Shown piece by piece: positions 1,250 to 52,377 of a stretch of DNA of 64,000 nucleotides. Source of the stretch: an uncultured Bacilli bacterium (GTDB taxonomy: Bacteria; Bacillota_I; Bacilli_A; RF39; UBA660). Within the stretch, counting starts at the first letter, position 1; each line of letters begins with the position of its first letter. The notes beneath the pieces are model-generated. The model searched no databases. It was not told the DNA's origin and saw only the letters and a program-made list of their open reading frames with translations. The translations under genes were made by a program, and so were the position numbers. The stretch is taken from positions 16,754 to 80,753 of the forward strand of contig CAKOLW010000002.1 in assembly GCA_934096405.1 (NCBI GenBank), in the 5' to 3' direction.

Positions 1250-2794
1250 TTAACAATTTGAGTTAACTTCATCCACTATATATGGATTAGTTGGTGTCCC
1301 TGTTCCAGTTACCAATACACAAGAAGCTAATGAAATTGCGGGACGCGCAACATAATATGCATAATCGGAACGACCATCACTTAAATTTCCTGAATTAGCA
1401 GTACCGCCAGCTAGCCATATTGTAGCCCCAGAGCCAGTCCATCTACGTGGAGATAGTAACCAAATCCAACTATTACCGGTTATTGAATTTCCTTCACTAT
1501 TTAAATAATACCATGCATAAGGACTAGTTAATTTTGTGCCAGTTTTTCCACCAGCAAAGACAAGTTCATCTGCAGTTGCTAATGCTATTGGATACTTAAG
1601 TTTACCATTTCCTCCACCTGTTGTGCTTGCACTAAATTTATCAGCAATTGCTTGCACACTTTCAAATAAACCACCACTTGGATTTGTTCCACATTTGTAT
1701 GATGGGGTTTTATTATCAACTAGTCTTGTGTAACTGCCATAATATACTACTTTACTAGTTACATATTCATACTTTGAGTCATAACTTCTATCATTACAAT
1801 ATATTGCAGTTTTACTTATATATTTATCATAATTTGTTAGTAATTTATTCTCGTACCATGTATCTATATATTTTTTAATTGTACTATCATTTTCATTTGT
1901 TCTATTATTATCTATAGACCCACTTGTTCCATACATATAGCCTTCATATACTAAATCATTATATTCAGTATTAAATTTTGTACTTCCTAGGTAACCTTTT
2001 TCTGTATCTGTACTTGTTCCAGAATATAGAAGTCTTACGCCTCCATCTTCATTAGTACGAATTATTCTCCAGTAAAATCCTCCAAAGTATACCCAGTTAT
2101 TTGTTGTATTTCCCGAATAATAATATACATCACTTCCATCTTCTGTTTTATTTGTTTTATATATTGTTCCTGTTGTTGTTTCTGTATTTGTTACACTAAA
2201 ATCTGTTCTTTCACTTACAGTTGGATTATCTCTTAGTATTGCACTTGAAACCAAAACTCCTGGTTCGTCTGTTCCTTCTTCAATGAATATCTTACCTGAT
2301 ACTTCTTTTTCCATATCAGCACTTTGGTCTACATCATCATCACTTATGTACTTCAATTCTAATGTATAATTATGTTTTGTATTAGAGGCTATTGCAACAC
2401 TATATTTAATAATTATATCTTCTAGTGTAGTTGACTTTGGTATATCTTCATAGTCAATCATACTATATCCACCATCTGTACTTGTTATTTTATATACTAA
2501 ATAGCCTTTAGTTACAAATGTGTTTATTAAATCTTTAAATACTAAATTATATTTATATTCATAGTTTGTTTTATTCTCTACACTAAATGTTTTAGTTATA
2601 CTCCATCCTGGTTCTATATTTGTTCCTTCTATATCATCCCCGTTGTCAAAAACTATTTTCAAATCATTTGTATCAACAGTTATTTTCTTTTTATCTCCTC
2701 TTACTATGGAACTAAAGTAAGCATAGGTTAAACCTAATAACAAAAATAATACTAAGCAAATTCCATATATTAAAAACTTCTTTTCTTTTGTCAC
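1250..2794 (-). CDS. Secreted protein, family member 1. It has a SipW-type signal peptide, a TasA/camelysin-like N-domain and a C-terminal lectin-like (DUF6273/DUF1566-like) domain.
   Basis: The ORF track gives 1250..2833 from a TTG that lies inside the promoter. The likely start is GTG 2794, 9 nt after AGGAGA. The N-terminus KKFLIYGICLVLFLLLGLTYAYFS matches the (T)(F/Y)AYFS SipW-class signal. Other motifs: IEPGWSITKTFSVEN; YYYSGNTTNNWVYFGGFYWRIIRTNEDG; YPIALATADELVFAGG; WIWLLSPRRW; YYVARPAISL. The protein ends in C-x21-C-COOH. Confidence 0.85.
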   Translation of the reverse strand: MTKEKKFLIYGICLVLFLLLGLTYAYFSSIVRGDKKKITVDTNDLKIVFDNGDDIEGTNIEPGWSITKTFSVENKTNYEYKYNLVFKDLINTFVTKGYLVYKITSTDGGYSMIDYEDIPKSTTLEDIIIKYSVAIASNTKHNYTLELKYISDDDVDQSADMEKEVSGKIFIEEGTDEPGVLVSSAILRDNPTVSERTDFSVTNTETTTGTIYKTNKTEDGSDVYYYSGNTTNNWVYFGGFYWRIIRTNEDGGVRLLYSGTSTDTEKGYLGSTKFNTEYNDLVYEGYMYGTSGSIDNNRTNENDSTIKKYIDTWYENKLLTNYDKYISKTAIYCNDRSYDSKYEYVTSKVVYYGSYTRLVDNKTPSYKCGTNPSGGLFESVQAIADKFSASTTGGGNGKLKYPIALATADELVFAGGKTGTKLTSPYAWYYLNSEGNSITGNSWIWLLSPRRWTGSGATIWLAGGTANSGNLSDGRSDYAYYVARPAISLASCVLVTGTGTPTNPYIVDEVNSNC

Positions 2795-2823
2795 CTTTAC
2801 AACTCTCCTATCTTTACATTTTA

Positions 2824-2852
2824 ATTTTATCAAAAAAAGTAGTTTGTTACAA
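2824..2852 (-). promoter_or_regulatory. Sigma-A-type promoter TTGTAA-N17-TAAAAT with an extended -10 TG, for family member 1
   Basis: The minus strand reads ..TTGTAAcaaactactttttttGaTAAAATtaaa. The same module occurs at 39771-39799 and a related one at 24973-25001. Confidence 0.55.
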
Positions 2853-2859
2853 CTACTTT
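2836..2859 (-). terminator. Terminator of ftsZ, overlapping the -35 of the next promoter
   Basis: The minus strand reads aaagtagttgtaacaaactacttt followed by a T7 run. Confidence 0.65.
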
Positions 2860-2871
2860 GAAAGTTTTATT

Positions 2872-3933
2872 TTAAATATCTCTATTTCTTAAAAAAGGAG
2901 GTAAATCATCATCGTCATCATCTACTAATTTTTTGTTATCAGTTGATGGAGTTGTGTATGTTTGATATAAAGGTTCTGTTTCATCTTCAAAACCAGTAGC
3001 TATAACTGTTACTATTGCTTCATCTGTTAAAGACTCATTTATTACAGCACCAAATATAATATTTATATCTGTATTTGCGGCTCCTCTAATTACTTCTGCT
3101 GCATCTTCTGCTTCAAATAAAGTTAATGAGTTTCCACCAGTTATATTTATAATACAATCTGTAGCTCCATTTATAGTTGTTTCTAGTAATGGACTTGATA
3201 CTGCTTCTTTAGCAGCTTCTATAGCTCTGTTTTCTCCAAATCCTACACCTATTCCAATTAGTGCTTGTCCTCTGTTTTCCATTATTGCTTTTACATCAGC
3301 AAAGTCTAGGTTAACTAATCCAGGAACACTAATTAAGTCAGATATAGATTGTACACCAAGTCTTAATACATTATCTACTTCTTTAAATGCATCAGTCATT
3401 GGAGTTGATTTATCTATTAAATCTCTTAATCTATCATTAGGAATTACTACATAAGTGTCTACATGCTTTTTTAATTCATCTAAACCTAATAAAGCATGAT
3501 CCATTCTTTTCTTTCCTTCAAACTTAAATGGTTTAGTTACAATTGCTACTGTAAGGCATCCTAACCCTTGTGCTATCTCAGCAATTACTGGTGCAGCTCC
3601 TGTACCTGTACCTCCACCAAGACCACAAGTAACAAATACCATGTCTGCCCCTCTTAAAGCATCTTCTATTTCATTTCTACTTTCTAAAGCAGCTTCTCTT
3701 CCAACTTCAGGGTCAGCTCCAGCACCAAGGCCATCAGTTATAGAAGCACCTATTTGTAACTTTGTTTCAGCTTTACTTGTGTTTAAAACTTGTAAATCCG
3801 TATTAGCAACTATAAATTCTACTCCTCTTAATCCAGATTCAATCATTCGGTTTACAGCATTACATCCGCCCCCACCTACACCTATAACTTTAATTTTTGC
3901 TATTTGTAACATTTCTAATGAATTTCCTTGCAT
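2872..3933 (-). CDS. ftsZ: Cell division GTPase FtsZ
   Basis: Motifs [26 protein letters not shown] and [16 protein letters not shown]. It has an acidic C-terminal tail with PPFLRNR. An AAGGAG RBS is present. Confidence 0.97.
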
Positions 3934-3945
3934 TTTACACTCTCC

Positions 3946-5184
3946 TTAATTATCAAAAAAGTAACTATATACTTTTCCTAATAAACTACCTTCATCTATT
4001 TTTTTCTTTTCTTTAAATATTTCTTCTTGTTCATAATCATCTATGGTAGTTGCTTTTTTATTTCTAAATTTTAATTTTTCATAATAGTATTTAATTATAC
4101 CAATAGCTGTACTATATTTATTATTTCTTACTCCTAGTATATTTAGTTTAGTATTTTCATAATTCTTGCCAAATACTTCATTGTATACTTTATTAAAGCC
4201 TTCTATCTCAGTACAACCTCCTGTAATGATTATATAACTAATTTCCTTTTTTGTTAAGAGATTTATTTGTTTTTTTGCAAGTTCTAATATTTCTCTTAAC
4301 CTAGAATAAACTATTTCACTTACTTCATATTGATTTATTTTAATATGTTCTTCAGATTTTGTCAAGCATTCTACAGTTTCATTTGTACTTGCATTAGCTT
4401 TATGTGCTAGGGCAAATGTTTCTTTTAATTTTTTACTTTCTTCTAAAGATAAATCATATATATAACTTATATCTCTATCTATGTTTTTACTACCTATATC
4501 TAATACTTCTGTACTAATTAGATTATCTTTATTTATTATACTTACTTCTGTTTTATCAGAGCCTATATTAATTATAGATACTATTTTATCTTTAAATTCA
4601 TTTTTTCTAAAAGCATAATAATCAGCTTGTCCTCCAAATGCTAAGTCTACTACCTTAACTCCTAATTTATCTAGTATTTCTATTAGACTAAATATATTCT
4701 TTTTAGGTATTACTCCTAATAGAGAATTTACTGATAATCTAGAAGCTTCAATGTTTTTAGGATCATTTACTATTTTGCTTTCATTAATTATGTAATCTAC
4801 TCCATTTACACTTACTAATTCTAAATTAGGACTAACCCTGTTATATACACTTGCTTGTAGTACATGAGTTACATCTTCTCCAGTTATTTTTTTGTCTTCT
4901 CTAGTGATTGTAATGTATCCTTCTCCTTTTATAAAATTAGCATAGTATGATGGACTTACTAATACAATCTTATTTATTTTAATTCCTAATACATCTTCAG
5001 TCTTTGTTAGAGCTTCTTTTATGCATTCTTTAGCTATTTCTTCATTAACTATTATTCCTTTTTTTATGCCTTTGCTTTTTATTTCAGTGCATGCCAAAAC
5101 AAATAATTCTTCATTATAAATTTCTCCAACAATTACTTTTACACTATTTGAACCTAAATCTAAACTTGTTATTATTTGTTTCAT
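3946..5184 (-). CDS. ftsA: Cell division protein FtsA
   Basis: Actin-like ATPase with SLDLGSNSVKVIVGE and a 412-aa length, lying immediately upstream of ftsZ. Confidence 0.9.
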   Translation of the reverse strand: MKQIITSLDLGSNSVKVIVGEIYNEELFVLACTEIKSKGIKKGIIVNEEIAKECIKEALTKTEDVLGIKINKIVLVSPSYYANFIKGEGYITITREDKKITGEDVTHVLQASVYNRVSPNLELVSVNGVDYIINESKIVNDPKNIEASRLSVNSLLGVIPKKNIFSLIEILDKLGVKVVDLAFGGQADYYAFRKNEFKDKIVSIINIGSDKTEVSIINKDNLISTEVLDIGSKNIDRDISYIYDLSLEESKKLKETFALAHKANASTNETVECLTKSEEHIKINQYEVSEIVYSRLREILELAKKQINLLTKKEISYIIITGGCTEIEGFNKVYNEVFGKNYENTKLNILGVRNNKYSTAIGIIKYYYEKLKFRNKKATTIDDYEQEEIFKEKKKIDEGSLLGKVYSYFFDN

Positions 5185-19464: not shown

Positions 19465-20290
19465 TTAATATAGATTAATACAAGGCGAATAATCACTATA
19501 ATATTTATTGTTATTTGAGTCAAGCATATACACTCTTGATGCTACTTTAGACGAAAAGTCATCTTTTGTTAAAAGTGGAACAATTGAATTAGAATAACTT
19601 GGATTTCCATCTGAATCTGTGCCTAAACAGTAATAAAATTCCTCGCCAGCATAATTCTTATCTATATTACTTGCAGTTTCACCTGTATAATAATCTTTAT
19701 TAATTTGTAAATGTCTCATGTCTGATTCATTATTATAAATAAGGATTTCTAATCTAGGTGTTGTTAATTTTATTTCTACTTCACTATATTCACTATAAAT
19801 TTTATTGTTTTCTGAATCTAATACATAAGCTCTTGACGCATAAATTTTTCCATAGTTACCTACTAAGTCCACACTTGTTTGAAAGTTTTGATGAATATTA
19901 TCTGTATGTATTATAGTATAAGTATTTTCATTTTTTCATAAACTTCATAGCCGGATACAGCATCACTTGATTCACCATCAAAATTTATTTTATTGTTTTC
20001 AATATAAACAAACATATTTGGTGCAGCTATAGGATTATCTAAATCTATTATATTAGAATAATCATTATAAAAAGTTGTTCCATCAATCACTACATATTTT
20101 CTTGCTTTAAAATAAAGGTGTTCTCCTTTTTGTACACTTACAGTATTTTGACGGTTTTCCCATTCTTCTTTTGTTAAAGAACCATATAATGTTTATTCTC
20201 CATCTTCTGATGTCGAACTATATATTTCTATTCCTGTAGCATTATTTAAAGAATCTACAGATATCATTATTGATTTTTTATTTTACATTC
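19465..20290 (-). pseudogene. Decayed third copy of the repeat module of the 20314-22998 surface-protein gene, with frameshifts
   Basis: 19859-19910 is nearly identical to 22189-22240. Homologous stretches (GIEIYSSTSEDGE*, ..HLYFKARKYVVIDG..) are spread over several frames. Only 19465..19872 remains as an ORF. Confidence 0.6.
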
Positions 20291-23008: not shown

Positions 23009-23320
23009 CTATTTTATTATAACTTGTGCTTCTACTTTTTTATCATTATTTAGTTTAACTATTAATGTTTTAATATCTTTTATATCAGTATATGAAGCAA
23101 TTGGATTAGTACCATAACATAATATTGTTCCGTCTTCATATCTGATTTCTTTAAATTCTATTTCTTTATCATTTTCATATACAATTAATTTTCTTTCTGG
23201 TGAGTATGCATCTACTGTTTCAAAATTAATTTTATAAGTTTTTTTGTTATAAAATAATAGTACTAACACTATAGCTATTATTAAAACTATAGGTATTATA
23301 ATTATTAATCTCTTTTTCAT
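23009..23320 (-). CDS. Small membrane-anchored protein sharing the C-terminal domain of the upstream 489-aa protein
   Basis: TM anchor followed by YKINFETVDAYSPERKLIVYENDKEIEFKEIRYEDGTILCYGTN... This aligns with YTISRRKTDSYSPDNLLTVYEEGSVISVQRIEYIDGGIICFGNN.. at the end of 23322-24791. Confidence 0.75.
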   Translation of the reverse strand: MKKRLIIIIPIVLIIAIVLVLLFYNKKTYKINFETVDAYSPERKLIVYENDKEIEFKEIRYEDGTILCYGTNPIASYTDIKDIKTLIVKLNNDKKVEAQVIIK

Positions 23321-23321
23321 A

Positions 23322-24791
23322 TTAATTAATTGTAGCAGTTACTTTTATACCACTATTTAGTACTACTACTACTCTTGTCACTCCTAATAAATCAGTATCA
23401 GATGCAGATAAGTTATTTCCAAAACATATTATACCACCATCTATGTATTCTATTCTTTGAACAGATATTACACTTCCTTCTTCATAAACTGTTAATAAGT
23501 TATCTGGTGAATATGAATCAGTTTTTCTTCTAGAAATTGTATATGATTTTTGTACCCAACTTGCTGTTAAAGTAATATTGCTTGTTACAGGATTGTTAAA
23601 ATTGTAAGCACTTCCATTTAATAACCATCCATTAAATTTGTACCCTTCTTTTGTTGGTGATGCTGGTTGAGTAACTTTATTTCCTTCAGTAATAGTTTGT
23701 GAACCGACACTAGTTCCACCATCTGAATTAAATGTAACTGTATATTTTGATAAAGGTTGCCATTTAGCAGTTAGTGTTATATTTTTTGTTATTCCAATAT
23801 TAAAGTCGTATGTTTTTCCATCTAATTGCCATTCTACAAACTTATATCCTTCTTTTGCAGGATTACTTGGTTTTGTTGCTTTATTTCCTTCTGTAATTGT
23901 TTGTGAGTTTACACTACTTCCACCATCTGAATTGAATGTAACTGTGTATTTATTTGCTATTTTGCTCCAACTTGCTACTAGAGTAATGTTTTTAGTTACT
24001 ATAGTATTAAAGTCATATGATTTTCCGTCTAATGTCCATCCTTCAAATGTGTATCCGCTTCTGGTAGGATCTTTAGGCTTACTAGCTTTGTTTCCTTCAA
24101 TAACACTTTGTGAACTAATTAAAGACCCTCCGTTACTATTAAATGATACTGAGTATTTTTTCTTAGTTGGTGTTGTTGGATTATTTGGTTTTGTTGTATT
24201 ACCATTATTTCCATTGTTTCCACTATTGCCATTATTATTTGTGTTATTTCCATTTGTTTGTTTTACTTCTTCCCATTTAGCTTTTAATTTTAGGTTAGTA
24301 GTAACTTCAGTATCAAAGTTGTAAGTTTTTCCATCCAATTGCCATTCTTTGAACACATAATTTGCTTTAACTGGATCTACTGGCTTTACTATTTTTTGAC
24401 CTTTTTCTATTACTTGGTTTGCTATAGTTGTTCCACCATCAGTGTCAAATTCAACTACATAAGTTTTAACGTCTTCTCTTACTTTTTCCCACTTAGCAAT
24501 TAATGTTAAATTTGATGTAACAGCTGAATTAAAGTCATATGTATTACCATTATTAGTCCATTCAACAAATATATAACCTTCTTTTGTAGGATTAGTTGGC
24601 TTTGTAACTTTTTCTCCTTCTTTTATTTTTTGATCACTTATTGTACTTCCACCACCAGTATTGAAAGTGACATTATAAGTTACAGGTACTTCTTCTTTAT
24701 TCATTGTTTTTACAATGACTCCTATAATACCGGCTATAACAACAACTACTATAGCACCGAGTATATAATATAGGCTTTTTTTGTTTTCCAT
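23322..24791 (-). CDS. Membrane-anchored surface protein with six Listeria-Bacteroides (Flg_new/InlB B-type) repeats
   Basis: A repeat of about 70 aa recurs, of the form YTVTFNSDGGSSV.SQTITEGNKATKP..P.KEGYKFVEWQLDGKTYDF....TKNITLTAKW. The linker is Asn/Gly-rich. Confidence 0.8.
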   Translation of the reverse strand: MENKKSLYYILGAIVVVVIAGIIGVIVKTMNKEEVPVTYNVTFNTGGGSTISDQKIKEGEKVTKPTNPTKEGYIFVEWTNNGNTYDFNSAVTSNLTLIAKWEKVREDVKTYVVEFDTDGGTTIANQVIEKGQKIVKPVDPVKANYVFKEWQLDGKTYNFDTEVTTNLKLKAKWEEVKQTNGNNTNNNGNSGNNGNNGNTTKPNNPTTPTKKKYSVSFNSNGGSLISSQSVIEGNKASKPKDPTRSGYTFEGWTLDGKSYDFNTIVTKNITLVASWSKIANKYTVTFNSDGGSSVNSQTITEGNKATKPSNPAKEGYKFVEWQLDGKTYDFNIGITKNITLTAKWQPLSKYTVTFNSDGGTSVGSQTITEGNKVTQPASPTKEGYKFNGWLLNGSAYNFNNPVTSNITLTASWVQKSYTISRRKTDSYSPDNLLTVYEEGSVISVQRIEYIDGGIICFGNNLSASDTDLLGVTRVVVVLNSGIKVTATIN

Positions 24792-24972
24792 CTTTTTCCT
24801 TCCTTTCTGAGCACTAAAAAAATTATAGACTGGTACCTATGATTTTAAAATAACAAAAAACTATGAGAGTTATTTTTAATAACCCCCCCCGAAATTCGTA
24901 CCAAGTTTGGTACTTAATTCAGAGTTGATTAGTACTATCATAGTTTTCATGCTCCTTTTATTTTATGCTTTA
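24792..24972 (-). promoter_or_regulatory. Conserved 5' leader, copy A (candidate cis-regulatory RNA or uORF element)
   Basis: 24809-24983 aligns with 39605-39781. A 41-nt core is identical apart from one C/T: GAATTAAGTACCAAACTTGGTACGAATTT(C/T)GGGGGGGGTTA. It contains the palindrome GTACCAAACTTGGTAC (24898-24913), a G8 run (24883-24890), a weak hairpin plus T-run, and AGTGCTC just before the main RBS. Confidence 0.6.
24876..24941 (-). CDS. Candidate leader mini-ORF A (21 aa, or 24 aa from ATG 24950)
   Basis: GGAG lies 10 nt upstream of the ATG. Sequence: MIVLINSELSTKLGTNFGGGY*. The G8 run encodes GGG. Confidence 0.35.
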   Translation of the reverse strand: MIVLINSELSTKLGTNFGGGY

Positions 24973-25001
24973 ATTTTATCAAATCATTTAATTATATGCA
25001 A
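24973..25001 (-). promoter_or_regulatory. Promoter of the leader-A operon (TTGCAT-N17-TAAAAT, extended -10 TG)
   Basis: The minus strand reads TTGCATataattaaatgatTTGaTAAAATtaaag. Confidence 0.55.
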
Positions 25002-36847: not shown

Positions 36848-39586
36848 TCAACAAGTACTAGCACTTTCATCTATTACATATGGATTATCAGCAGTTCCTT
36901 TTCCTGTTACTTTGACACAAGAGTTTAGAGAAATGACAGGACGAACAGCATCCGCGCCGCTCACGCGTCCGCCGCCCAAGCCCGCATCGCCAGAATCCCA
37001 ATAACACTCGCTCGCATAGCTACCAAACCAGTCGAAAGGCGACAAGGACCACCAATAATTTGATACTTTAGTTCCAGAACTATTGCTTATAAACCATGCA
37101 TATGGTGTACTCATACTTGCATACCATGCCGTTCCTCCGGCAAAAGCCATTTCGTCAGCAGTCATTAATGCTACAGGGTAGTCTAACCTTGCACTTGTGT
37201 TTTCCACACTAAATGCATCTCTTATATCACTGCAATTATATGTTGGTGTTTTATCTGTTATTAATCTTTTATGTGACGCAAAATCAAATCCTGTACTTGA
37301 TGTTGTATATGAGCCTTCTGTTTCTTCACTTCTATCATTACAATATATGGCACTTGTACTTAAGTATTTTGTATAATTAGTTAAATTGTTTTGATACCAT
37401 GTATCTATATATGTTTTTATTGTACTATCATATGTATTATTTCTTATTGTATCGAGGGAAGTATCTTCTCCATATTTATAGCCTACATATTTTGGACTAT
37501 TATAGTTTGTATTAAATGCACTTGTTCCTATATTTCCACTTGTTGTATCATGACTTGTTCCTACATAAAGTAGTCTTATACTTCCATCATGATTTGTTCT
37601 TATTATTCTCCAGTAGAATCCCCCAAATAATACCCAGTTATTTGTTGTATTGCCAGCATAATAGTATACTTCTTGTGGTGTACTAGTTATTCCTGCTATA
37701 CTTTCTGTTGAAGTAAACAATGTTCCTGTCGTGGTTGAATTAAAAGGACTACTAAAAGATGTTCTAGATGAAATTGTTGGATTATCTTGTAATATTATTT
37801 CTGCTAAAGTTGATGATGCTTTTTTTCTTAAAATAACTGTACATTCTTGATATTCTATTGGATTTGATATTTTTACTCCAGTACTTGTTATTGTACCAAC
37901 TGCAGTTCCTGTACAACTAACATTTGAATATTCTAATTTATAACCTTCATTTGGCGAAATAATAAATGATGTCTCTTGATTTTTATTTACTACAGCGTAA
38001 TCAGTTTTAGCTTTACCATTTTGTACTTTTAATACTATTATACTTTCATCTTTAGTGTTATCTGAAGAATTATAGTTTACTTCATCAATTTCATAAGGAT
38101 TATTTGCTGTTGCATCTCCTGATTTAATTCTAGCATTTGATGATAGTGATATAACTGGACGAATTACACGTTCTCCATTAACATAAGAATTTGTCATATA
38201 ACCTGGATTACTACTTCCACGTACAGTAAAATTAAGTGCATATGATGTACTCCAATAGTATGGAGTTAACGTCCACCAGAAATTACTTCCTACAATAGAA
38301 TTTCCTTCACTATTTGTATAATACCATGCATAAGGACTAGTTAAATCTTTTCCATTTAATCCACCTGCGAATACTATTTCATCTGCTGTCATTAATGCAA
38401 TTGGGTAGTCTAGATCTCCATTTCCTCCACCACTTATACTTGCACTAAATTTGTCATCATTTGACTGAGTGCTTTCAAGTAATCCATTGCTTGTATTTGC
38501 TCCACATTTATATGATGGACTAATAGTCTTGACAAGTGTGTAATAATCTCCAAAATGAAATCCACTTGTTAGAGAATATGCTTCACTACTTATACTTCTA
38601 TCACTACAATATATTGCTTCTTTACTTATGAATTTATCATAATTAGTTAGCAGATTGTTTTGATACCAATTATCTATGACTTGTTTTATTGTACTTGAAT
38701 TAGAATTTAATCTATTATTTGATAACGAACCGCTTGTTCCATACATATAGCCAACATACATTGGATCATTTGCAGTTGAATTAAATGCAGTATTACCAAT
38801 ATAACCTTCTGTTGTATTATGATTAGTACCTGCATATAAAAGTCTTACACTTCCATCTTCATTAGTACGTATTATTCTCCAAAAATAGCCTCCAAATTTA
38901 ATCCAATTATTTGTTGTATTTCCTGAATAATAATATATATCACTTCTATCTTCTGTTTTATTTGTTTTATATATTGTTCCTGTTGTATCATTGTTATTAG
39001 TTGTATTAAAGCTTGTTCTTTCACTTACTGTTGGATTATCTCTTAAAATTGCTTGTACTAAAGATAACTCTTTTGTTCCTTCTTTTATCATAAATGTTCC
39101 AGATAATTTTTTACCCATATCAGCTGATTGATCTTCTTCTGTATCTTTGTAAATCAATGATATTGTATAGTCATGACTATCTTTAGGATTAATTGTTATA
39201 TAGTGTGCTAAGGTTACATCTGTTTTTTCATTAGTTTTTGGCAAATCTATATATTCTTCCATATTGAATCCATTTGTAGATGTTATCTTATATTGTAAGT
39301 ATCCTTCAGTTACAAATGTATTTAGTAAATCTTTTACATATATATCATAAGTTTCTGTTTCTTTAGATGTACTTTTAACTTTAAAATTAATGCTTGTATT
39401 CCATCCAGGTTCAATAGATACTGCTGGTATTGTTTTTTCTCCTTCGTATTTTATATATACACCAGTAGTTTTTACAGCAAATTCTTTATCATTTCCGAAA
39501 ATTCTTGGCTTAAAATATGCTAAAGTTACTCCTATTGTAATTATTAATATACTTACTACTAATATTGTTAAATACTTTTTCCTCAT
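36848..39586 (-). CDS. Secreted protein, family member 3 (912 aa), with one TasA-like N-domain followed by two lectin-like domains
   Basis: LTILVVSILIITIGVTLAYFKPRIFG; IEPGWNTSINFKV. Domain 1: YYYSGNTTNNWIKFGGYFWRIIRTNEDG..FWWTLTPYYW..VIRPVISL. Domain 2: YYYAGNTTNNWVLFGGFYWRIIRTNHDG..YWWSLSPFDW..AVRPVISL. The protein ends in C-x21-C-COOH. Confidence 0.88.
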   Translation of the reverse strand: MRKKYLTILVVSILIITIGVTLAYFKPRIFGNDKEFAVKTTGVYIKYEGEKTIPAVSIEPGWNTSINFKVKSTSKETETYDIYVKDLLNTFVTEGYLQYKITSTNGFNMEEYIDLPKTNEKTDVTLAHYITINPKDSHDYTISLIYKDTEEDQSADMGKKLSGTFMIKEGTKELSLVQAILRDNPTVSERTSFNTTNNNDTTGTIYKTNKTEDRSDIYYYSGNTTNNWIKFGGYFWRIIRTNEDGSVRLLYAGTNHNTTEGYIGNTAFNSTANDPMYVGYMYGTSGSLSNNRLNSNSSTIKQVIDNWYQNNLLTNYDKFISKEAIYCSDRSISSEAYSLTSGFHFGDYYTLVKTISPSYKCGANTSNGLLESTQSNDDKFSASISGGGNGDLDYPIALMTADEIVFAGGLNGKDLTSPYAWYYTNSEGNSIVGSNFWWTLTPYYWSTSYALNFTVRGSSNPGYMTNSYVNGERVIRPVISLSSNARIKSGDATANNPYEIDEVNYNSSDNTKDESIIVLKVQNGKAKTDYAVVNKNQETSFIISPNEGYKLEYSNVSCTGTAVGTITSTGVKISNPIEYQECTVILRKKASSTLAEIILQDNPTISSRTSFSSPFNSTTTGTLFTSTESIAGITSTPQEVYYYAGNTTNNWVLFGGFYWRIIRTNHDGSIRLLYVGTSHDTTSGNIGTSAFNTNYNSPKYVGYKYGEDTSLDTIRNNTYDSTIKTYIDTWYQNNLTNYTKYLSTSAIYCNDRSEETEGSYTTSSTGFDFASHKRLITDKTPTYNCSDIRDAFSVENTSARLDYPVALMTADEMAFAGGTAWYASMSTPYAWFISNSSGTKVSNYWWSLSPFDWFGSYASECYWDSGDAGLGGGRVSGADAVRPVISLNSCVKVTGKGTADNPYVIDESASTC

Positions 39587-39770
39587 TGCTACCTCCGCTT
39601 TTTAGAGCACTAAAAAACTCATAGACTGGTGCCTATGAATTTAATATAACGAAAAAACTATGGGTGTTATTTATTTTTAACCCCCCCCAAAATTCGTACC
39701 AAGTTTGGTACTTAATTCAAAGAGAATTATTCTTTCCATAGTTCTGTACTCCTCTACTTTTTACTCTTTA
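39587..39770 (-). promoter_or_regulatory. Conserved 5' leader, copy B
   Basis: See copy A. The palindrome is at 39696-39711, the G8 run at 39681-39688, the hairpin CATAGgcaccagtCTATG plus T6 follows, and AGTGCTC lies before the RBS GCGGAGG. Confidence 0.6.
39677..39739 (-). CDS. Candidate leader mini-ORF B (20 aa)
   Basis: GGAG lies 9 nt upstream of the ATG. Sequence: MERIILFELSTKLGTNFGGG*. Confidence 0.35.
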   Translation of the reverse strand: MERIILFELSTKLGTNFGGG

Positions 39771-39799
39771 ATTTTATCAAAAAAAGTAGTCTATTACAA
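39771..39799 (-). promoter_or_regulatory. Promoter of the leader-B operon (TTGTAA-N17-TAAAAT, extended -10), embedded in the terminator hairpin of the upstream gene
   Basis: The minus strand reads aaagtggTTGTAAtagactactttttttGaTAAAATtaaag. This is the same terminator-plus-promoter module as 2824-2859. Confidence 0.55.
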
Positions 39800-52022: not shown

Positions 52023-52377
52023 TGGTGGAGCTGACGAGTATCGAGCTCGTGTCCAAAATATCTACTATACAAGCGTGTACAAGTTTAGTTGGTTTATTAT
52101 TTCAAAAAGTATAATGGATTGCCAACGTTCCTATACTTTTCTAAGTTTAGTAATAATTCTTTATTTAACCTAAACAATTAAATAATATAGTCTACTTTTA
52201 TGAGTCCTAGATCTTTTCTCGTAGACAAAGAAAAGTTAGAACCACCATACATCCTAATAACTAGGCAAAAGCAGGTGCAAAATTATAATCTTTTCCGATT
52301 ATTTTATTTTTGGATTTATAGTATCCCTACTACTTGCGCTCATACGTACAACTATCTTGTCGAAACATAACAGCCCC
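52023..52377 (-). ncRNA. ssrA: tmRNA (ssrA)
   Basis: The 5' end GGGGCTGTTATGTTTCGACAAGATAG parallels the B. subtilis tmRNA 5' end. The 3' end is GGACACGAGCTCGATACTCGTCAGCTCCACCA. The acceptor has the G3:U pair. The tag ORF at 52296-52261 reads GGA AAA GAT TAT AAT TTT GCA CCT GCT TTT GCC TAG, giving (A)GKDYNFAPAFA. Confidence 0.85.

Follow-up and report, generated by a model that had tools for sequence, protein, structure and literature searches.

The 64,000-nucleotide (nt) stretch of DNA analysed here, referred to as the window, belongs to contig CAKOLW010000002.1 (assembly GCA_934096405.1) of an uncultured Bacilli bacterium and carries two similar 5' leaders on its minus strand, copy A (24792-24983) and copy B (39587-39781), each of which measures ~190 nt together with its promoter. 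The two align end to end from the -10 box to the main ATG at 81% identity, whereas their flanks (the 200 nt before each leader and the 200 nt at the start of the coding sequence, CDS) share 55-56%, which is the background level at 26% guanine-cytosine (GC) content. Copy A precedes the gene for a 489-aa Listeria-Bacteroides-repeat protein (23322-24791, minus strand, ATG at 24791) and copy B the gene for a 912-aa secreted protein that has no Pfam match (36848-39586, minus strand, ATG at 39586); the two proteins are unrelated (BLASTP E=0.56). A first-pass annotation of this DNA had reported such ~175-nt leaders ahead of unrelated genes, with a 41-nt core in which the sole difference is one C/U, and our alignment of the two copies reproduced both observations. 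Our data also support its view that the leader is under selection as a cis-acting 5' element common to unrelated genes, and suggest that each copy is probably a phase-variable leader-peptide transcription attenuator with a poly-G tract, by analogy with a system described in Streptococcus gallolyticus. The promoter, the GGAG ribosome-binding site (RBS), the mini-open reading frames (mini-ORFs) of 21 and 20 codons, the 16-bp palindrome, the G8 run, the hairpin with its U6-7 and the AGTGCTC motif were all found where that annotation had placed them:

24973..25001, minus strand: copy A promoter; -35 TTGCAT at 25001-24996, 17-nt spacer, TG-extended -10 TGATAAAAT at 24981-24973
24876..24955, minus strand: copy A RBS and mini-ORF; GGAG at 24955-24952, ATG at 24941, stop TAA at 24878-24876
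24898..24913, minus strand: copy A palindrome GTACCAAACTTGGTAC, the predicted RNA hairpin P4 atop the helix of CU tract and G-run; accessory, some lineages being without it
24883..24890, minus strand: copy A G8 tract (C8 on the plus strand), the putative slippage site
24858..24866, minus strand: copy A segment 2 (TCATAGTTT), which pairs with the start-codon region AAACTATGA at 24946-24938 in the RNAfold prediction
24816..24846, minus strand: copy A terminator-like hairpin AUAGG-UACCAG-UCUAU with an A-U extension and U7
24792..24815, minus strand: copy A AGTGCTC (24815-24809) and main RBS AGGAAGGA, preceding the ATG at 24791
39771..39799, minus strand: copy B promoter (promoter scan); -35 TTGTAA at 39799-39794, 17-nt spacer, TG-extended -10 TAAAAT at 39776-39771
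39677..39754, minus strand: copy B RBS and mini-ORF; GAGGAG at 39754-39749, ATG at 39739, stop TAA at 39679-39677
39696..39711, minus strand: copy B palindrome and predicted P4 hairpin
39681..39688, minus strand: copy B G8 tract
39612..39638, minus strand: copy B terminator hairpin UCAUAGGC-ACCA-GUCUAUGA (-9.4 kcal/mol) with U6
39587..39611, minus strand: copy B AGTGCTC (39611-39605) and main RBS GGAGG, preceding the ATG at 39586

The -10 block TTTGATAAAATTAAAG is the same in both copies (the hexamer TAAAAT of copy A lies at 24978-24973), and the -35 of copy B overlaps the terminator hairpin of the upstream gene. GGAG is located 9-10 nt 5' of the mini-ORF ATG, and the G8 run occupies codons 18-20 of the mini-ORFs, which in this G8 frame encode the short peptides MIVLINSELSTKLGTNFGGGY (21 codons, 24941-24876) and MERIILFELSTKLGTNFGGG (20 codons, 39739-39677). 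These two tracts are the only runs of at least six G or C in the 64-kb window. In both copies the hairpin and its U6-7 lie 24-26 nt 5' of the main ATG. Folding of the leaders gave the same architecture in A and B, and both folds were more stable than all 200 shuffled sequences (z = -3.7 and -4.6). A 31-nt core pattern matched the two leader sites alone, with none of 100 shuffles matched, and a covariance model built on 18 representatives and run over the window with filters off recovered exactly two copies (165 and 152 bits), the next independent match having an E of 0.04. The Rfam scan of the window revealed no match at gathering score, and the best match of a permissive Rfam search (E=0.31) was far below the gathering score of its family. 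The earlier statement that the element belongs to no known leader class consequently holds for Rfam, but its architecture does match the attenuator mechanism of the S. gallolyticus pil1 and pil3 loci.

When 185,579 species genomes were scanned for the palindrome together with a G-run, 26 loci came up, all of them in two metagenome-assembled genomes (MAGs) that are named "uncultured Bacilli bacterium" and originate from Hadza gut samples, CAKOLN ("OLN") and CAKORV ("ORV"); since the scan required the palindrome, its invariance among the copies is partly due to search design. Searching these loci with a profile yielded 31 matches, which together with the two window copies makes 33 distinct copies, and the covariance model also recovers copies in the searched loci of relatives. 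The first-pass annotation had proposed a covariance-model search with a count of copies, and had named a lack of conservation in related genomes as grounds for abandoning the element; the count stands at two copies in the window, ~21 in OLN and ~10 in ORV, and the leader is kept in relatives. Many of the OLN and ORV copies are found at contig ends, as expected of a repeat that breaks assemblies. Each has its own promoter (TTGAAT-N17-TGATAAAAT) with the -10 block of the window copies, and precedes a protein of 500-900 aa with an N-terminal membrane helix and an "AYF" motif, the genes often being arranged in tandem. This family is very large and includes the 912-aa window protein but not the 489-aa one. 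At ≥90% identity, the window FtsZ falls into one cluster with proteins named "Tenericutes/Mycoplasmatota bacterium"; the host is a low-GC, uncultured bacterium of the gut, represented solely by metagenome assemblies.

Diverged homologues of the leader were found in three further lineages. The first (L086), the one real locus among 11 returned by a metagenome scan with GGGGGGGTTAN{8,14}CATAGTTTTT, is without the palindrome and has a mini-ORF that is 12 nt shorter, in frame with a G8 run and with its stop one codon later. The second is the locus of protein P0211 from a common human-gut species, in which the order of the leader parts is the same as in the window copies while the blocks in common are short (TTATAA after the run and ATAGTTTTG; a GAATAACTCT loop is common to P0211 and L086). 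In the P0211 locus the mini-ORF RBS is itself polymorphic (L095-L102, ~4800-4815), reading GATAG-GGGAAGAC as opposed to GATAGAAGGAGGAC or GATAGAAGGAGAAT, which makes it a second variable site of the leader, one that could affect the frequency of mini-ORF translation. The third leader (L110/L111, 7843-7985, the locus of P0163) is homologous at 84 bits with the covariance model but has no G-run; its mini-ORF has a fixed length of 28 codons and stops 4 nt 5' of the terminator stem, and it may be an ancestral or naturally locked form. In viral contigs, the 16-nt palindrome alone gave 39 loci, all chance palindrome-only matches, and the pattern of G-run and segment 2 gave 0 loci. P0002, P0004, P0017, P0182 and P0203, which are orthologues or paralogues of the downstream proteins from other species, had neither a leader nor a G-run of at least 6.

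Comparison of assemblies indicates that the G-run is a hypermutable tract. Nine independent assemblies of the P0211 locus, whose leaders are otherwise near-identical, carry runs of 10, 8, 9, 9, 7, 9, 8, 9 and 7 G. Seven of the nine could be aligned over 8.84 kb (99.2-99.97% identity), a span with only five internal indel sites; the G-run is present in four lengths, a T9 run is invariant, and pairs that are 99.93-99.97% identical differ at the G-run (G9 versus G7, G9 versus G8). Within the window clade, 30 of the 33 copies are G8 and the remaining three, which are from OLN, are G9. In three samples the OLN protein P0143 has a G9 leader ahead of it, and in a fourth, where its genomic context is another, a G7 leader. 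In this case the 552-aa protein is 100% identical at L090 (4740-5000, G9) and L091 (2775-3035, G7), while the leaders differ by several substitutions and the upstream genes are different, which suggests recombination or gene conversion among loci of the family. For P0121 and P0127 one location each was recovered, and these yielded no additional comparison of tract length.

The length of the run determines where the leader ORF stops relative to the hairpin. For each lineage the stop was computed for the observed run length and for one base more and one base less, with the following result:

Window clade (copy B, OLN, ORV, L086), immediate-stop frame, G8: stop 0-2 codons after the run, 34-41 nt before the hairpin
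Window clade, medium frame, G7/G10: stop ~4 codons later, 29-31 nt before the hairpin
Window clade, long frame, G9: ~16 more codons, stop TAG in the 5' arm (+2 to +4)
Copy A (spacer 2 nt shorter), immediate-stop frame, G8: stop 38 nt before the hairpin
Copy A, medium frame, G7/G10: stop 11 codons later, 7 nt before the hairpin
Copy A, long frame, G9: stop TAA in the 3' arm (+15)
P0211 lineage, immediate-stop frame, G9: stop 50-51 nt before the hairpin
P0211 lineage, medium frame, G7/G10: stop 39-40 nt before the hairpin
P0211 lineage, long frame, G8: 45-aa ORF, stop TAG in the 5' arm (+4 to +5)

In every lineage that bears a G-run, one frame stops at once, one stops a few codons later and one stops inside the hairpin. 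In six lineage representatives, the distance from the short and medium stops to the downstream hairpin is 29-51 nt, except for the medium stop of copy A, and the long stops are at +2 to +5 of the stem (copy A: +15). A G9 run would make the leader ORF of copy A end at TAA 24825-24823 in the 3' arm of its hairpin, and that of copy B at TAG 39635-39633 in the 5' arm. The register of the P0211 lineage is shifted by one base relative to the window clade, with the pattern unchanged, and in both lineages the commonest run length (8 in the window clade, 9 in P0211) is the one that gives the immediate stop. The 45-aa ORF was annotated by the gene caller solely in the two G8 assemblies of the P0211 locus. 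The first-pass annotation missed both the apparent hypermutability of the G-run and this fixed relation of the three frames to the terminator.

Pairing statistics across an alignment of 18 sequences separate a conserved core, which consists of the RBS, the mini-ORF, the G-run, the stop codon and the hairpin with its U-run, from accessory parts. The terminator stem shows compensatory changes at three pairs across the copies, pairing reaches 96% in the helix that joins the CU tract to the G-run, and the helix of segment 2 with the start-codon region, which closes the leader domain, is invariant in the 18 representatives and 99% paired. The pairing of AGUGCUC with the mini-ORF RBS region, which had been put forward as an element of the leader, does form in the window copies, but only 77% of its cells pair in the alignment and about half of the OLN copies are without the motif, and we therefore rejected this helix as a core feature. 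The palindrome likewise lost its place as a core feature, being absent from L086, L110 and P0211 and replaced, in frame, by a different hairpin in one OLN copy (L060_1590). The peptide ELSTKLGTNFGGG, described earlier as the conserved part of the mini-ORF, is not conserved in divergent lineages: no peptide sequence is kept between lineages as distant as P0211, the C-terminal extensions of the long frame have nothing in common between lineages, and a functional conserved leader peptide was rejected on the grounds that the sequence is not conserved outside the close clade. The frame from the ATG to the G-run, in contrast, is preserved across 6- and 12-nt indels in relatives. A frame that is kept while its peptide is not suggests, from the sequence comparison, that the act of translating the mini-ORF matters rather than its product.

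By analogy with S. gallolyticus pil1, we infer that the mini-ORF is translated, that transcription terminates at the hairpin and that the switch has a defined ON/OFF polarity. In the proposed mechanism, the sigma-70-type promoter would give rise to a leader transcript of ~175 nt with a strong RBS and a mini-ORF of ~20 codons, and the G8 run near the 3' end of the mini-ORF would be prone to slipped-strand mispairing during replication. Downstream of the run, 25-30 nt before the RBS of the structural gene, the hairpin and U-run would act as the terminator, and the length of the run would set the frame in which ribosomes leave it. With G8, or with G7/G10, an early stop would release the ribosome, the hairpin would form and most transcripts would terminate, giving an OFF or low state. 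With G9, the ribosome would still be sitting on the 5' arm when the polymerase reaches the U-run, so that no terminator could form and the surface-protein gene would be transcribed, giving an ON state. Both window copies are predicted to be OFF or low because both are G8. The G-less L110/L111 leader, with its ORF that stops 4 nt before the hairpin, also counts for an attenuator, and the targets are secreted or surface proteins of a multigene family, which are the usual clients of phase variation. With ~20 copies per genome in relatives switching independently, a population would come to show changing combinations of surface proteins.

Several observations weigh against this interpretation. The hairpin of copy A is weak (5 pairs, ~-1 kcal/mol before the A-U extension), a generic terminator scan of the window called neither leader hairpin, and the medium frame of copy A, ending 7 nt before the hairpin, falls outside the spacing of the other short and medium stops. 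The window copies are G8 in every assembly in which they were seen, five further ones for copy A (one of them from the sample that also holds copy B) and two for copy B, and the predominance of G8 in 30 of 33 window-clade copies could mean structural selection for G8. Tract lengths were taken from consensus Illumina assemblies, in which poly-G is error-prone, and there is no second G-run to serve as a control. When the spacers were shuffled, the frame pattern arose by chance with p ~0.12-0.18 per lineage, and the lineages are only partly independent, so the frame geometry taken by itself is no more than suggestive; it gains weight from recurring in lineages that differ in spacer and register. 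Transcription and translation are reportedly only loosely coupled in Bacillus subtilis, which would weaken ribosome-mediated antitermination; the streptococcal precedent shows that such antitermination can work in Firmicutes.

The leader could alternatively be a conventional signal-responsive element, in which the structured RNA or the mini-ORF senses a physiological input (for instance a ligand, a bound protein or a pause of the ribosome at the rare glycine codons GGG GGG GGU), the G-run has a structural role in pairing with the CU tract and variation in its length is a tolerated by-product. The strong and reproducible fold (z = -3.5 to -5.3), the 96% pairing of the G-run helix and the invariant closing helix speak for such an element, as does G8 being strongly modal in the window clade and fixed across the assemblies of the window loci, and the G-less L110 leader shows that an attenuator is possible without a tract. 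However, runs of 7-10 G in strains that are 99.9% identical would repeatedly break a sensor that depends on frame or helix length, and modal lengths of 8 and 9 that each give an immediate stop indicate selection on the frame and not on the length. There is also no Rfam match, and neither the peptide nor the palindrome is conserved across lineages. An amino-acid-sensing attenuator of the trpL/hisL type was rejected: the mini-ORF does have three glycine codons, but the downstream genes encode surface proteins and not glycine metabolism, and segments 2 and 3 have the same polarity (both are CAUAG), which from the sequence makes the classical 2:3 antiterminator pairing impossible in the window clade. 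We consider a signal-responsive leader doubtful on balance.

Non-heritable recoding, that is RNA polymerase slippage or -1/+1 ribosomal frameshifting on G8 which produces graded read-through, would make equal use of the three-frame geometry. Homopolymer runs of at least 8 are known slippage sites, and here the run consists of rare GGG codons with a stop codon directly after it. The length differences that exist between assemblies at the DNA level already explain the changes of frame, however. We consider recoding unlikely as the explanation; it could act together with DNA variation. We regard as very improbable that the leader is simply a block of homology for gene conversion or cassette shuffling among surface-protein paralogues, comparable to the 5' regions of mycoplasma vsp/vlp genes, with no switching role of its own. 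Copies are near-identical within a genome and different between species, they lie in tandem arrays that are often at contig ends, and the same 552-aa CDS is found behind different leaders and neighbours in L090 and L091, all of which fits recombination; it leaves unexplained the geometry of ORF, G-run, stop and terminator in single-copy lineages such as P0211 and the leader ahead of the unrelated 489-aa gene, and is compatible with a phase-variable attenuator and no replacement for it.

The first-pass annotation laid emphasis on the palindrome. One reading is that it is an operator or protein-binding hairpin that controls the regulon, for which there is its perfect 16 bp, its invariance in 32 of 33 window-clade copies and the small XRE-type helix-turn-helix (HTH) genes that adjoin family genes in relatives; this hardly survives, since the invariance is partly an artefact of a scan that required the palindrome, the L086, L110 and P0211 leaders keep the rest of the architecture without it (an absence which led us to rule the operator out), and the different hairpin sequence at this position in one OLN copy fits an RNA stem over a DNA site. 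An inversion switch of the cwpV, flgB or fim type was rejected, as the >40 copies found by hidden Markov model and covariance model are all in one orientation.

The regulated family is best described as secreted or surface proteins. It gave no sequence match in PDB. The AlphaFold model of an OLN member (predicted local distance difference test, pLDDT, of 87) gave weak Foldseek matches to beta-sandwich proteins, including the TasA fibre and archaeal bundling pili, at template modelling (TM) scores of 0.17 or less, and one window paralogue has a weak Pfam match to camelysin/M73 at its signal region (E=0.002, below cut-off). In OLN, genes for XRE-type HTH proteins of 76-78 aa follow family genes (L090, 76-312 and 4556-4786), and two sigma-70-family genes adjoin the array (L090, 401-2554); these may be regulators of the secreted family. 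Another member of this family in the window, a 514-aa protein (1250-2794, minus strand), is preceded by a third site that resembles copy B:

2820..2859, minus strand: copy B promoter/terminator module, 92.5% identical over 40 nt and without a leader, after ftsZ (2872-3933)

The leader thus looks like a module that is optionally present behind the same promoter.

The operon behind leader A comprises the genes for the 489-aa protein, a 103-aa protein and a repeat-rich 894-aa protein. The 103-aa protein (23009-23320, minus strand) and the C-terminal ~65 aa of the 489-aa protein have a domain in common (YSP..L.VYE......I.Y.DG.I.C.G.N). Downstream of the 894-aa gene, a 135-aa ORF (19465-19872, minus strand) repeats a segment of the 894-aa protein (DLVGNYGK.YA.R.Y.LDS..NK.YS.YSEV) and has the appearance of a paralogue that was truncated or of a residual repeat unit. 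The window, which is ordinary chromosomal DNA and not a mobile element, carries a transfer-messenger RNA (tmRNA) gene at 52023-52377 (minus strand) and four tRNA genes:

12101: tRNA-Arg (TCT)
30189: tRNA-Ile (GAT)
30273: tRNA-Glu (TTC)
51871: tRNA-Thr (CGT)

It is possible, and we put this forward only tentatively, that the leaders bring about combinatorial surface variation on a genome-wide scale in uncultured gut Bacilli with small genomes, with ~20 independently switching poly-G attenuators per genome each gating one member of a diversified secreted-protein family, that they evolved independently of pil1 by insertion of a G-run into an attenuator whose ORF ran into the terminator, with the L110 form being ancestral, and that slippage may add a graded layer. 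If each copy is indeed a phase-variable attenuator, this design is recurrent and not a curiosity, with another type of repeat, in an unrelated uncultured gut lineage and at ~10-21 loci per genome. It would also provide a rule that can be searched for and that is invisible to ordinary gene annotation: an RBS, a mini-ORF and a homopolymer, arranged so that one frame stops at once and a second runs on into a hairpin and U-run. Tract length in metagenomic reads would then predict the ON or OFF state of each surface-protein gene, and the surface variation of common uncultured human-gut bacteria would become measurable without culture.

The proposed switch has features in common with several known systems. 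In the Escherichia coli pyrBI/pyrL, trp, his and pheL attenuators, an RBS and short ORF are likewise followed by an intrinsic terminator, and hairpin formation depends on where the ribosome stands, as is proposed here. Their input is metabolic (uridine triphosphate, charged tRNA) and they use alternative antiterminator pairing, whereas here the input would be the frame encoded in the DNA. The homopolymer contingency loci of Campylobacter, Neisseria and Helicobacter, and the poly-A tracts of mycoplasma vlp genes, also place a hypermutable homopolymer by surface genes, the length of which varies between near-identical strains; in these the tract is in the structural ORF or the promoter spacer, whereas here it is within a leader ORF distinct from the structural gene and would be read out as termination of transcription. 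The concept of poly-G ON/OFF switching has been described (PMC11955535). In Haemophilus influenzae, lex2A contains a tetranucleotide repeat and lex2B codes for the transferase (PMC3116884). The variable G-repeat of Helicobacter pylori tlpB is also in an mRNA leader and tunes downstream expression, but it does so post-transcriptionally as the site of the small RNA RepG (PMC8295292), whereas the run described here is inside a mini-ORF upstream of a terminator. Clostridioides difficile cwpV encodes a phase-variable Firmicute surface protein and has a conditional intrinsic terminator in its 5' leader, as is proposed for the window genes, but there the switch is a recombinase-mediated inversion of DNA (PMC2784873), whereas here it would be a variable homopolymer in one orientation. 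The instances of phase-variable termination given in a 2025 review of Rho-dependent termination are all invertible DNA elements (PMC12360218), and the literature that we searched contained no case beyond S. gallolyticus of a leader-ORF repeat coupled to a terminator, so that leader-peptide phase-variation attenuators were found there in one species, at two pilus loci.

These two loci, pil1 and pil3 of S. gallolyticus, are the closest parallel. Upstream of each is a leader-peptide ORF that contains GCAGA repeats (Danne et al., 2014; PMC3894217). In pil1, a peptide stop 39 nt (≥28 nt) before a premature stem-loop terminator results in low expression, and an out-of-frame change in the repeats results in a longer peptide which stops within or after the hairpin and in high expression, the ribosome destabilising the terminator, as was demonstrated with start-codon, stop-codon and terminator-deletion mutants (PMC3894217). 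The leaders described here have the same succession of promoter, RBS, short ORF with a simple-sequence repeat and putative stem-loop terminator ahead of genes for surface structures, the same placement of the stops (short-peptide stop ~30-40 nt before the hairpin, long-peptide stop within it), a Gram-positive gut host and, as predicted here, a stochastic output. They are analogous and not homologous, having no GCAGA array and no sequence similarity to pil1. The hosts of the predicted switch are uncultured low-GC Bacilli, and the leader ORF lies within a further long-range RNA domain. Instead of 13-22 GCAGA units, a G homopolymer of 7-10 would move through the three frames in single-base steps, and instead of two pilus operons, the leaders stand at ~10-21 loci per genome ahead of a multigene family.

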